From: Chlamydiota bacterium
GTDB lineage: Bacteria > Chlamydiota > Chlamydiia > Chlamydiales > Rhabdochlamydiaceae
NCBI GenBank assembly: GCA_013287365.1
Contig: JABDDY010000001.1
Span: 1 to 57,992 of the forward strand
Reading direction: 5' to 3'
Length of the DNA: 57,992 nucleotides
Shown: piece by piece, positions 17,982-20,607 of the stretch
Position numbering within the stretch: position 1 is the first letter of the stretch
Layout: every line of letters starts with the position of its first letter
Translations under genes and position numbers: made by a program
Notes under the pieces: generated by a model
What the model was told of the DNA's origin: nothing
Seen by the model: the letters and a program-made list of their open reading frames with translations, nothing else
The model's database searches: none

Positions 17982-18221
17982 ATGGAAGATAAAAAAAGTA
18001 AATTTGATTACGGTGAAGCGATAAGAATTTCGAAAAATGCACCAGAAAAATACCATCCTTCTGAACTTGGATTTATTTGCGGAATGATTGACATAGATTC
18101 GGAGGAAGCTGCCGCTGCTTATGATTGCATAGGAAGCGATTGGTTATATACTGTAGAATTTCTTAATGGCAGTTCTTTACAAATTCCTGAAAAATATTTA
18201 GAAGAAGATGGTGCTAAATAA
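17982..18221 (+). CDS. Small (79 aa) SH3/DUF4926-like protein, candidate cognate immunity or accessory protein
   Basis: AAGGAGG 5 nt upstream of ATG 17982, 15 nt after the RHS stop. The pattern GEAIRI...GFICGM...YTVEFLNGSSLQIPEKYLE resembles the small beta-barrel proteins common in polymorphic-toxin loci. Confidence 0.55.
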   Translation: MEDKKSKFDYGEAIRISKNAPEKYHPSELGFICGMIDIDSEEAAAAYDCIGSDWLYTVEFLNGSSLQIPEKYLEEDGAK

Positions 18222-18648
18222 ACCCATGTTGCTGCCCTCGCAATTGATCGAGATTTCTAAATATGCGGCTTTCTTTCATGATGGCTCAGTTATGGATATT
18301 CGACATACAGGAAAAAACCTTGAATTTTCCATGGCAAGTGCGGAAATGGATAAGGAAGATGTCAAAGATAACATTATTCTTTCAAAAGACGATAGCATCC
18401 AAGGGAAACTACACCTTGAGGGAATCAAAAGTATAGTAATAGGTGGAAAATCGTTTTTAGGAAGACTTGAAAAAAAATATGACAGAGGGACAATTTTTGA
18501 TTTTGAGCTCACCAAAAATTCTATTGAGCTATCGATAGACTGGATAGACTTTCCTCCCAAACCAGAAGTAAATGAATTTTCAGTTATTAAAATTGAGGTT
18601 GAAAAAATTTGGTGGGAAAATATCCCTAATTTGGAGAATTTCATGTAA
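18208..18648 (+). CDS. 'YFHDG/FPPK' family small protein, copy 1 (candidate immunity protein)
   Basis: Paralog of the next three genes (FFHDGS..., FPPKP..., IEVEKIWWENIPNLE). The start could instead be ATG 18226. Confidence 0.65.
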   Translation: MVLNKPMLLPSQLIEISKYAAFFHDGSVMDIRHTGKNLEFSMASAEMDKEDVKDNIILSKDDSIQGKLHLEGIKSIVIGGKSFLGRLEKKYDRGTIFDFELTKNSIELSIDWIDFPPKPEVNEFSVIKIEVEKIWWENIPNLENFM

Positions 18649-18669
18649 CCTCTGATATTGTGGTAATAT

Positions 18670-19077
18670 ATGAATTTATCAAAATATAGTAGCTACTTTC
18701 ACGATGGTAGCTTAATCAATTTCAAACACGTGGGAAATAAAATCGAAATTTCAATGTTAAGCGCCGAAATAATTCCAGAACATATGATAAAAAATATGCC
18801 ACCTTTAAATAAGAATAGAATTGCAGGAAAACTTTATTTAGACGGGATAGGAAAAATCAAAATAAACAACGAGCCTTTTACTGGCACACTAAAAAAAATA
18901 TATGACAGCGGTAGTATTCTAGACTTTGAGGTTTTGAAGCACAAAGTAATTTTAGGCATCGAATGGACAGATTATCCGCCTAAGCAGAGAAAGTCTGACT
19001 TTTCTACAATCGAGATAGAAGCTGAAAAAATTCATTGGGAAAATATTCCAGATCTTTCCGATTCGATGAATATTTAG
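18670..19077 (+). CDS. 'YFHDG/FPPK' family small protein, copy 2
   Basis: MNLSKYSSYFHDGS..., YPPKQRKSDFSTIEIEAEKIHWENIPDLSD. Confidence 0.65.
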   Translation: MNLSKYSSYFHDGSLINFKHVGNKIEISMLSAEIIPEHMIKNMPPLNKNRIAGKLYLDGIGKIKINNEPFTGTLKKIYDSGSILDFEVLKHKVILGIEWTDYPPKQRKSDFSTIEIEAEKIHWENIPDLSDSMNI

Positions 19078-19153
19078 ATGCAAATGATAATCCAGTCCTG
19101 AACATTAGTGACCCATCTCATCTATATCCTTCATGAATAAATAAGGGAGAAAA

Positions 19154-19540
19154 ATGAATATTGCTAAATACACAGATTATTTTCACGATGGATATGTAAA
19201 TAGCATTTCACACGCAGGAAATAACATATATTTTTCTCTTGAAAGCTCTGTAATAGAAAACTTGGATGAAATTACAGACAAAAATCTACTGTCATCCACT
19301 AATACATTAAAAGGCACATTAAATATTTACAATATCAAAAGCTTTAAAATAGGAAACAAAAAATATGAGGGTGCCTTTCAGATGCAATATGACGATGGGG
19401 ATATCCTGGATTTTGAAATTAAAGACAATAAAATTTTTCTGCTTGTCGAATGGAAGAACTTTCCCCCAAAAAATCGAAAGACGGATGTTAGTAAAATTGA
19501 AATAGAGGCTGAAAAAATTCAGTGGGCCCCAGAAAAATAA
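19154..19540 (+). CDS. 'YFHDG/FPPK' family small protein, copy 3
   Basis: gggaga RBS; MNIAKYTDYFHDGY..., FPPKNRKTDVSKIEIEAEKIQW. Confidence 0.65.
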   Translation: MNIAKYTDYFHDGYVNSISHAGNNIYFSLESSVIENLDEITDKNLLSSTNTLKGTLNIYNIKSFKIGNKKYEGAFQMQYDDGDILDFEIKDNKIFLLVEWKNFPPKNRKTDVSKIEIEAEKIQWAPEK

Positions 19541-19960
19541 ATGAATATTGAAAAATACACAGGTTATTTTCATGATGGTGGGTTCATCGGCGCAAAAAGA
19601 AAAGAAAATAACATAGAACTTTTTCTTCGAAGCTGTGAGATTGAGTCTGACGAGCCTATAGATAGAAAATTTTTATCGAAAGATAACGCATTAAAAGGCA
19701 AATTATGCCTGATAGATGTCAAATGGATCAAAGTAGATCATAAAGAAGGCAAAGAAATTCCTTGGAAGGAATATGACGATGGAGAAATCCTGGATCTTGA
19801 AATTGATAATAATAAAGTCTTCCTCCTCCTTGAATGGACGAATTTTCCTCCAAAACCACGAACAGATGACGTTGGCACAATCGAAATAGAAGCGGAAGAA
19901 ATTTATTGGGAAAACATTCCAGATCTTTCTGACGACTACTTTAAAAAAGATAAGGGATAG
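19541..19960 (+). CDS. 'YFHDG/FPPK' family small protein, copy 4
   Basis: The ATG immediately follows the stop of copy 3. MNIEKYTGYFHDGG..., FPPKPRTDDVGTIEIEAEEIYWENIPDLSD. Confidence 0.65.
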   Translation: MNIEKYTGYFHDGGFIGAKRKENNIELFLRSCEIESDEPIDRKFLSKDNALKGKLCLIDVKWIKVDHKEGKEIPWKEYDDGEILDLEIDNNKVFLLLEWTNFPPKPRTDDVGTIEIEAEEIYWENIPDLSDDYFKKDKG

Positions 19961-19974
19961 TTACTAAAAATAAA

Positions 19975-20052
19975 GAGGCTTGGTTTTATACACTTGAGTT
20001 CGGAGATGGCAACTCAATAGAGTTGCCAGAATGTTATTTGGAACCATATTAG
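19975..20052 (+). pseudogene. 3' remnant of a second copy of the 79-aa SH3-like gene
   Basis: Translates to EAWFYTLEFGDGNSIELPECYLEPY*, matching DWLYTVEFLNGSSLQIPEKYLEE of 17982..18221. It has no start codon, with an in-frame stop upstream. Confidence 0.6.
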
Positions 20053-20068
20053 GAAAAAATTAAAAAAT

Positions 20069-20468
20069 ATGTTTTGTTTCGTGAACGGCTCATCTTTATT
20101 TCATGATGGTTCAATTATTGCGATAAATCATACTGAGAACGAAATAACAATTTCCATGGAAAGCGCAGAAATGGACGAAGAAGACATAACAGATGATGTT
20201 GCTCTTTCAAAAGATGATAGGATTCGAGGAAGATTACATATAGAAGGCGTAAAGAGTTTAAAAGAAAACAATCAACATTATCCTGACGTTTTGAGAATGA
20301 AATATGAAGACGCGGAAATCTTTCACTTTGAAATTAATCAAAACAAAGTAGAGTTTCAAATGGTGTTCTTGTCCTCCAAAGCCTTGCATAGAAGATTTTT
20401 CTACAATAGAAAATGCAGCTGAAAAAATTTGGTGGGAAAACATCCCTAATTTGGAGAATGCAATGTAG
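20069..20468 (+). pseudogene. Frameshifted 'YFHDG/FPPK' family copy 5
   Basis: The N-terminal part aligns with copy 1 (LFHDGSIIAINH..SAEMDEEDI..LSKDDRIRGRLHIEG). The conserved C-terminus (PPKP..FSTIE.AAEKIWWENIPNLENAM*) continues in another frame and ends at 20468. Confidence 0.65.
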
Positions 20469-20489
20469 CCGCTGATATTGGGGTAACAT

Positions 20490-20527
20490 ATGAATTTATC
20501 AAAATATAGTGATTACTTTCACGAAGC
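20490..20527 (+). pseudogene. Truncated 5' stub of a copy-2-like gene (right edge of the array)
   Basis: atgaatttatcaaaatatagtgattactttcacga duplicates the first 35 nt of gene 18670. Homology stops near 20525, where GC-richer core sequence resumes. Confidence 0.6.
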
Positions 20528-20607
20528 ACTGTGACACGCAACCCTAAGCGCAAAACCTCTGCTCGCCTCTCAAAACCTCGCAAAAGATCGAGAGCAAGGG
20601 TCAAATC

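Follow-up and report, generated by a model that had tools for sequence, protein, structure and literature searches.

The stretch of DNA analyzed, hereafter the window, comprises 57,992 nucleotides (nt) of a Chlamydiota bacterium of the Rhabdochlamydiaceae (assembly GCA_013287365.1, contig JABDDY010000001.1, positions 1 to 57,992 of the forward strand). An RHS/YD-repeat open reading frame (ORF) of 1713 amino acids (aa) was identified at 12826-17967 on the + strand, and its N-terminus resembles a Sec signal sequence. Downstream of the RHS gene follow, in order, a gene for a 79-aa SH3-like protein, four intact genes of a family named YFHDG after one of its motifs, the remnant of an SH3-like gene, a frameshifted fifth YFHDG copy and the 5' stub of a sixth. 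The four intact and two decayed YFHDG copies are all found on the same strand, and the spacers between the intact ones measure 0-76 nt. The guanine plus cytosine (GC) content is 0.33-0.34 over 18-20 kb compared to about 0.45-0.53 on both flanks, and this low-GC island ends at about 20527. Sequence comparison makes it very probable that the YFHDG array is a set of orphan immunity genes directed against RHS toxins of a second type, designated type B, and that the 79-aa protein is the resident immunity protein, all at the variable 3' end of a chlamydial RHS locus. The coordinates of the features are collected in Table 1.

The core of the RHS protein was matched by RHS_repeat (PF05593) in Pfam with an E value of 2.7e-51 in 8 matched stretches, and by Rhs_assc_core (TIGR03696) in NCBIfam with an E value of 1.2e-10. 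The RHS genes most similar to that of the window, in the loci L006, L026 and L005, showed 66-70% identity over residues 1-1547, where the alignments ended. All three bear tail B and a YFHDG gene, and no significant similarity was found between their tails and the tail of the window, which is of another type, designated type A. The toxin domain of the window was 82% identical to the tail of locus L047, yet the cores of the two proteins were only 34% identical. Core and tail vary independently of each other in these alignments. The type-A toxin domain of the window tail contains the segments ...NAIKVPEGNWLTGSKDGKW...RKDGGGHPPPKH...PHAHVPGITNPDGTDWLPLKR, and the tail-A hidden Markov model (HMM) matched positions 17518-17964 with an E value of 1.8e-63. 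The tail-A consensus is ...NAI.VP.GNWLTGSKDGKW...RKDGGH...PHAHVPG.TN.DGTPWLP. The 26 database homologs of tail A were all short orphan fragments without a core. A hydrophobic segment of about 45 aa, FAFLIPLLFWGAEAALPALSAYAGYAIAGVITGAVAYGGYKAI, is located between the end of the RHS core and the toxin domain (window positions ~17467-17600, residues ~1548-1592) and gave a weak match to the Pfam family 2TM (E ~0.1). Orphan tail fragments and the type-B RHS protein in L001 contain a segment similar to this RHS linker. The hydrophobic linker may be a membrane-entry or pre-toxin element.

The pairing of tail types with immunity families was studied in 39 genome loci collected with YFHDG as bait, 44 metagenome loci collected with the SH3-like family as bait, and two contexts obtained by exact protein look-up. 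All stop-to-stop segments of these loci were scanned with four HMMs, representing YFHDG, SH3-like, tail A and tail B. The gene directly behind tail A was SH3-like in 35 of 35 modules, and in none of them a free-standing YFHDG gene, and the gene directly behind tail B belonged to the YFHDG family in 41 of 42; the immunity families served as bait, so the raw counts are inflated and the sample is biased, and the genes upstream of the bait were not selected for. No cross-pairing of tail type and immunity family was observed among the modules scanned, which came from 84 related loci. The pairing rule also held in loci with both systems, namely the window, L001, L011, L040 and L044. At least 11 full-length RHS genes (1523-1784 aa) ended in tail B with a YFHDG gene within about 10-40 nt (L001, L005, L006, L010, L014, L015, L026, L031, L032, L042 and L043). 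The pairwise identities of tail B and of the adjacent YFHDG gene were correlated, with a Pearson coefficient of 0.69, and none of 2000 Mantel permutations reached the observed value. Most tail-A loci were without any YFHDG gene, and most loci with tail B and YFHDG were without an SH3-like gene.

An earlier, sequence-only reading of the window had considered the 79-aa protein, a YFHDG protein or the pair together as the immunity factor of the resident RHS toxin. Because tail A was always followed by an SH3-like gene and YFHDG genes followed tail B, the comparison decides this choice in favor of the 79-aa protein, which is the likely immunity partner of the type-A toxin encoded in the window. 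The YFHDG genes, by following tail B where the resident tail is type A, are likely orphans against a toxin that this RHS no longer carries. The suggestion that these are toxin-linked genes of the immunity type was borne out, as 41 modules with YFHDG directly after an RHS toxin tail are the opposite of homologs that are never toxin-linked. The 79-aa gene starts 14 nt past the RHS stop codon, behind an AAGGAGG ribosome-binding site. Its product has an isoelectric point (pI) of 4.35, and the ratio of non-synonymous to synonymous substitution rates (dN/dS) was 0.11 versus the ortholog in L046. Profile searches with the 79-aa protein gave weak matches only, to the KDM4 and lamin-B-receptor Tudor domains in the PDB, with E values of 0.09-0.7.

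The two immunity families also occur next to each other: SH3-like and YFHDG genes adjoined 13 times in the sample. In two loci an SH3-like domain and a divergent YFHDG-like domain were fused in single ORFs (L050, 5395-5979, 194 aa; L067, 64-672, 202 aa), and the L050 fusion is located directly after an RHS with a type-A tail. The YFHDG-like halves of both fusions were divergent and without the HDG and FPPK motifs. The fusions could be a poly-immunity protein or a two-domain variant of an immunity protein. A different arrangement was observed in L003 (7020-12145), where a non-RHS TPR protein of 744 aa with a tail ending in ...LDKHGNVVLNDSPEAHIPISEF is followed by a mixed array of small genes, among them one YFHDG gene, an SH3-SH3 tandem fusion (10892-11338) and another SH3-like gene. 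The L003 locus has the appearance of a heterogeneous immunity array placed behind another kind of delivery scaffold. Two more small-protein families were found repeatedly beside SH3-like genes. One, of about 156-181 aa, is recognized by the pattern 'MF.PKYR...LGTQL...WYGADVDA' (L003, 11289-11834; L046, 1054-1524; L054, 6550-7029; L085, 1023-1514) and the other, of about 160-170 aa, by 'KYFTKEWC...' (L003, 10366-10881; L045, 3797-4303). Both are probably further immunity families in the same chlamydial toxin loci.

Tail B has the consensus ...W.ETTHP.A..GHRTFEN..TGE..R.D..KPG..GH...DH[WY]HR.NP....YLD..G.PV....SHLYP, and its database homologs were all short fragments without a core. An AlphaFold2 model of tail B showed a small alpha+beta domain with a predicted local distance difference test (pLDDT) score of 92.6, in which His, Arg, Glu and Asp are frequent among the conserved residues (H28, H36, R37, H60, H65, H67 and H96, numbered as in P0295, are among those conserved). 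Foldseek comparison of the model to the PDB gave nothing significant. The best structure match was a chain of 5T87 (E ~0.8, template modeling (TM) score 0.32-0.44), identified as a CdiA-CT toxin (PMC9111745), and it is used as a lead only. A small His-dependent nuclease is one possible activity of the toxins. Tails A and B have a loose motif order in common (TG.xR.D ... GH ... H.H ... NPD.T), but a relationship between them was rejected as unsupported at an hhalign probability of 0.7%. Within the window, a remnant of tail B, missed in the sequence-only reading, was detected directly upstream of YFHDG copy 3 and overlapping the out-of-frame 3' end of copy 2. It covers positions 110-134 of the 135 positions in the tail-B HMM and compares with the L031 tail, ...RFDEYLDANDNPVPEHSDPSHLYPL, and with the L028 tail. 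The remnant is what is left, as a scar, of an orphan toxin cassette once located ahead of copy 3.

The YFHDG paralogs of the window have the motifs YFHDG, FPPK and IEIEAEKIxWENIP in common. In their alignment 27 columns are invariant, and the identity to copy 2 amounts to 42-46%. The four intact head-to-tail paralogs (128-146 aa), the frameshifted fifth copy and the stub were found where the sequence-only reading had placed them, and its view that some copies are decaying was likewise confirmed by the frameshift in copy 5 and the truncated stub. The intact copies matched the family HMM with E values of 1e-61 to 1e-67 and their paralogy is therefore not due to chance. They keep full-length reading frames and all family-invariant residues. 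The dN/dS values versus orthologs were 0.15 for copy 1, 0.11-0.14 for copy 2, 0.13 for copy 3 and 0.12 for copy 4, and they partly reflect lineages in which the ortholog is the cognate immunity gene. By this measure copies 1-4 and the SH3-like gene are under purifying selection. The immunity candidates are acidic, with pI values of 4.4-6.5. The YFHDG proteins begin with MNLSKY..., and no hydrophobic stretch resembling a signal peptide was seen on reading the sequences.

An AlphaFold2 model of YFHDG copy 2 consisted of an N-terminal helix and a seven-strand antiparallel sheet (pLDDT 88, predicted TM score 0.82). Foldseek searches with this model against the PDB and BFVD gave no E value better than about 0.04 and no TM score above about 0.3. 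The family comprised 456 clusters at 90% identity in a word-seeded search and 410 clusters at 50% identity in an exhaustive HMMER search. Named sources of YFHDG were almost all Chlamydiota or metagenome-assembled genomes (MAGs) of the Planctomycetes-Verrucomicrobia-Chlamydiae (PVC) group, and all four families appear to be essentially confined to Chlamydiota and PVC MAGs. Some family members consist of two or three tandem domains in one protein. When the window proteins were scanned, neither Pfam nor NCBIfam gave a usable match for YFHDG, SH3-like, tail A or tail B, and a scan of all alignment members resulted in three single-member matches among 99 YFHDG sequences (E 0.007-0.008) and none among 25 tail-B and 26 tail-A sequences. 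Sequence and profile searches of the PDB with the four families gave chance matches only. The designed repeat proteins Cake and Scone were rejected as PDB matches, as they matched only through a low-complexity 'NPDGT' stretch. No paper describing these chlamydial families was found in the literature.

Every intact copy showed 69-93% identity to a gene in another genome compared to 33-51% to its array neighbors, which argues that the array was assembled from old subfamilies. The closest relatives of copy 1 outside the window were 71-76% identical to it, versus 37-46% inside the array. Three copies have relatives directly behind a type-B-tailed RHS, namely copy 2 (93% identity, L005), copy 3 (80%, L026) and copy 4 (76%, L001); in addition, genes elsewhere showed 81-86% identity to copy 4. 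The orthologs of copy 2 terminate in ...DLSDDCCK[ED]D*, whereas the window copy ends in ...DLSD|SMNI*. A deletion probably fused copy 2 to the end of the orphan toxin cassette, with loss of its native 3' end. The HMM match of copy 5 was split over two frames, with model positions 7-97 at 20078-20377 and positions 97-133 at 20352-20465. Its nucleotide sequence was 88% identical to a metagenome ortholog in L058, with a 5-nt gap, and the similarity stopped at ...WWENIPN. At the protein level, 75% identity over 97 aligned residues was found to the metagenome gene and 43% to copy 1.

From ...WWENIPN on, copy 5 is a copy of the window's own junction between copies 1 and 2. The two junction blocks differed by 12 mismatches in 107 nt (about 89% identity), and the bodies of copies 1 and 5 showed about 50-67% nucleotide identity. 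The segmental repeat noted in the sequence-only reading is thus real and restricted to this block. The 20490-20527 stub aligned with the 5' ends of the L005, L006 and L007 genes and belongs to the copy-2 subtype. The remnant at 19960-20052, of which 19975-20052 had previously been read as a decayed copy of the 3' end of the 79-aa gene, did match the SH3-like HMM (E 2e-9). It was 83% identical to genes of L084, L071 and L074 compared to 57% to the 79-aa gene of the window, and by these identities it is of another subfamily. An ancestral unit of the 79-aa gene and two YFHDG genes, duplicated and then truncated, had been proposed, and this was not supported, as copy 5 and the SH3-like remnant are both closer to genes of other genomes. 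Judged from the identities, the array brings together old, distinct subfamilies and did not arise by recent duplication in place; local duplication is restricted to the 107-nt junction block.

Tandem YFHDG arrays recurred in L013, L014, L015 and L018. Orphan pairs of tail B and YFHDG that are fuller than that of the window, with interleaved tails, were present in L013, L018, L021 and L038. In L014 (6493-8990) and L015 (6743-8827), two contigs of one MAG, a type-B-tailed RHS is followed by five to seven YFHDG genes with a within-array identity of 58-79% and without toxin scars. These two arrays look like products of local tandem duplication, unlike the window array.

Table 1. Features of the RHS locus and its YFHDG array (window positions)
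Feature	Position	Strand	Remarks
RHS core	12826..17466	+	Sec-type N-terminal signal MRYLIALACCLLATPVFS; DPAGF core-end motif at residue 1512
Variable RHS C-terminal tail	17467..17967	+	Hydrophobic linker of ~45 aa, then type-A toxin domain
79-aa acidic SH3/Tudor-like protein, likely cognate immunity of the resident type-A toxin	17982..18221	+	Assigned from position and pairing
YFHDG copy 1, putative orphan immunity gene	18226..18648	+	Candidate starts ATG 18208, ATG 18226, TTG 18244; HMM E 2.7e-65
YFHDG copy 2, putative orphan immunity gene	18670..19077	+	Last 4-5 codons out of frame, from the adjoining toxin remnant
Type-B RHS toxin-tail remnant	19059..19136	+	Last 25 codons RFDEYLDANDNPVLNISDPSHLYPS* plus stop; tail-B HMM E 2.4e-6
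YFHDG copy 3, putative orphan immunity gene	19154..19540	+	HMM E 1.5e-61; AAGGGAG ribosome-binding site
YFHDG copy 4, putative orphan immunity gene	19541..19960	+	HMM E 7.7e-67; start codon abuts the copy 3 stop
Decayed 3' remnant of an SH3-like immunity gene	19960..20052	+	SH3 HMM E 2.2e-9, positions 47-73 of 75
YFHDG copy 5, pseudogene	20069..20468	+	5-nt deletion near 20355, degenerate 5' end, 3' tip replaced by junction block
Copy-2-type YFHDG 5' stub, 38 nt	20490..20527	+	Repeat family D3; marks the right-hand end of the island
Junction block (copy 1 3' tip, spacer, copy 2 5' start)	18598..18704	+	Repeat D2; duplicated at 20418-20524
Second junction block (copy 5 3' tip, spacer, copy-6 stub)	20418..20524	+	From repeat alignment with 18598-18704

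The arrangement suggests the following course of events. The RHS tail would have been swapped by recombination at the conserved end of the core, a process known as C-terminal displacement, and immunity genes against several variants of the type-B toxin may have been kept or collected downstream as orphans. Deletions would have removed most of the orphan toxin fragments, leaving one scar of 25 codons, and would also have truncated or frameshifted the distal YFHDG copies. Each YFHDG protein, presumably cytoplasmic, may bind and block a single variant of the type-B toxin domain as it enters. In this way, cells that have ceased to make the type-B toxin would stay protected from neighbors that make it. 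The displacement history is deduced from scars only, because no RHS-core fragment was kept beside the orphans.

Other explanations were considered. It is very unlikely that the YFHDG proteins, alone or together with the 79-aa protein, constitute the immunity for the resident type-A toxin, even though copy 1 abuts the 79-aa gene and the two families adjoin or are fused elsewhere, in L050 directly after a type-A RHS tail. The strict succession of tail A and SH3-like gene, with never a free-standing YFHDG gene next to the tail, does not fit such a role. Neither does the distribution of the families, since most loci with one pair lack the immunity gene of the other, and the YFHDG-like halves of the fusions have lost the HDG and FPPK motifs. 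Origin of the array mainly by tandem or segmental duplication in place, with later divergence from a unit of the 79-aa gene and two YFHDG genes, is also unlikely. The repeated junction block would be explained by it, as would the order of SH3-like remnant, copy 5 and copy-2-type stub, which mirrors that of SH3-like gene, copy 1 and copy 2, and the L014 and L015 arrays demonstrate that locally duplicated arrays exist. However, the identities within the window array are far below those to other genomes, copy 5 resembles the L058 gene more closely than copy 1, the SH3-like remnant is from another subfamily than the 79-aa gene, and a toxin-tail scar interrupts the array.

The least probable alternative is that YFHDG serves the type-B RHS toxins as an accessory factor (for example as chaperone, adaptor or activating partner) and not as an immunity protein. 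The strict linkage to tail B speaks for such a factor, as does the lack of a known fold or function in the family. The YFHDG genes are nevertheless found immediately downstream of the toxin stop codon and encode small, acidic proteins with no apparent signal peptide, their divergence tracks that of the tail, and they occur in toxin-less orphan arrays and multi-domain fusions, all of which are hallmarks of immunity genes. Known Rhs chaperones and adaptors in type VI secretion system (T6SS) effector loci are encoded upstream of the toxin and act on its N-terminal region, which also counts against an accessory role. A small but appreciable chance is left for the YFHDG genes being inert leftovers of earlier toxin cassettes, neither expressed nor protective any longer and heading for loss. 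Of the distal copies, one is a pseudogene and the other a stub, copy 2 is without its native C-terminus, and promoter signals did not exceed background. Four copies are, on the other hand, full-length with all family-invariant residues and low dN/dS values, and they are tightly spaced on the same strand directly behind the genes for RHS and immunity, which would allow co-transcription. In such an arrangement, orphan cdiI genes are expressed and protective (PMC3150448).

The reading of the YFHDG genes as orphan immunity genes against type-B toxins is therefore preferred, and several observations weigh against it. The link between the YFHDG family and the type-B toxin comes wholly from genomic association. 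No RHS-core or core-end sequence was found within 18222-20527, where only the last 25 codons of one tail are present. The sample contained 8 YFHDG and 13 SH3-like genes without a recognizable tail upstream. The pI of the toxins, 5.7-6.4, is unlike that of a classic basic nuclease. A scan for promoters and terminators gave background levels only, which bears on the expression of the orphan genes. The use of bait families in sampling and the cognate orthologs behind part of the dN/dS signal, both described above, count on the same side.

Orphan toxin/immunity arrays are known from contact-dependent growth inhibition (CDI) systems, in which orphan CdiI genes are functional, being co-transcribed, expressed and protective, and cognate toxin/immunity pairs have been established for Rhs (Poole 2011, PMC3150448). 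The window fits the orphan-module loci of Rhs and CDI (PMC3150448) in its conserved core-end motif, variable tail and adjacent small immunity gene, in the downstream toxin-tail fragment without a start signal accompanied by intact immunity genes, in orphans that are related to main modules elsewhere (copies 2, 3 and 4; 93%, 80% and 76%), and in the independent evolution of core and tail. It differs from these loci (PMC3150448) in several respects. The locus comes from a chlamydial MAG, and its RHS protein bears a Sec signal with no recognizable T6SS or CdiB context. The orphan toxin parts are nearly all deleted, down to the 25-codon scar, and no RHS-core homology is found beside the orphans that would allow recombination onto the main gene. 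The toxin and immunity families are uncatalogued.

Poly-immunity loci and proteins have also been described (Zhang 2012, PMC3482391). The array resembles a homogeneous poly-immunity locus (PMC3482391) in having at least four tandem, same-strand, tightly spaced and distantly related paralogs of one family, and YFHDG proteins with two or three repeats and the SH3-YFHDG fusions of other loci resemble poly-immunity proteins. The role proposed for such loci, pre-emptive protection against toxins of non-kin strains, would be the same. By definition, however, poly-immunity loci are never broken up by toxin genes or cassettes and are separate from regular toxin loci (PMC3482391), whereas the window array follows a toxin gene directly and includes both a toxin scar and what is left of a gene from a second immunity family. 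RHS-linked toxins in chlamydiae have already been recorded, and extended poly-immunity arrays were reported only in four other phyla (PMC3482391). Small acidic immunity candidates directly after the tail, with no signal peptide apparent, and toxin domains of about 95 aa are features in common with families catalogued in Pfam (Imm1-Imm74, SUKH, SuFu, CdiI and others; Ntox and Tox-*). Unlike these, the four families of the window are without a sequence match in Pfam, NCBIfam or the PDB.

Beyond the stub, core genes are found on the minus strand, the first being an RNase Z-like gene at 20608-21513. Elsewhere the window contains ordinary housekeeping genes of the chromosome, such as those for a fused SecDF, for an SNF2-type helicase and for Lon protease. 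Between an ABC-F gene and the RHS gene (12218-12725), two small ORFs (90 and 80 aa) were observed, just downstream of the best promoter-like site scanned (12173-12202, 10 of 12 consensus positions). Neither ORF matched a Pfam family or had a homolog among the fetched RHS loci. Flank synteny was searched for by tblastn with the neighboring proteins (ABC-F, RNase Z-like and rhomboid-like) and with both small ORFs, and no match was found in the fetched loci. Two more low-GC stretches are present at 1-1000 and 54000-57000 (0.355-0.36 compared to about 0.5 elsewhere). The latter contains an ORF at 54062-55006 with weak matches to aspartyl proteases, and a 493-aa ORF at 52587-54068 without a Pfam match was grouped with it.

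The locus represents a known kind of system, RHS C-terminal displacement with orphan or poly-immunity arrays, built from four uncatalogued families, and is not conceptually new. It is possible, though on balance not expected, that tails A and B, YFHDG and the SH3-like family are founding members of new toxin/immunity families with folds or activities absent from Pfam and the PDB, that the orphan arrays record intense toxin warfare among chlamydiae in shared hosts or environments, and that the invariant HDG loop (H11, D12 and G13) could plug the active site of a new small His-dependent toxin enzyme. The logic of the system is well known, and the value of the finding is in cataloguing and in the ecology of chlamydial competition. 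Hypothetical proteins in at least 410 clusters are assigned a probable function, as is a second small family. The analysis also defines two RHS toxin tails that are uncatalogued, which gives two testable toxin/immunity pairs, and the RHS locus of the window can be annotated with the toxin that each gene protects against. Environmental Chlamydiota, a phylum for which the founding survey had reported no extended arrays, would likewise have extended immunity arrays and undergo C-terminal displacement.

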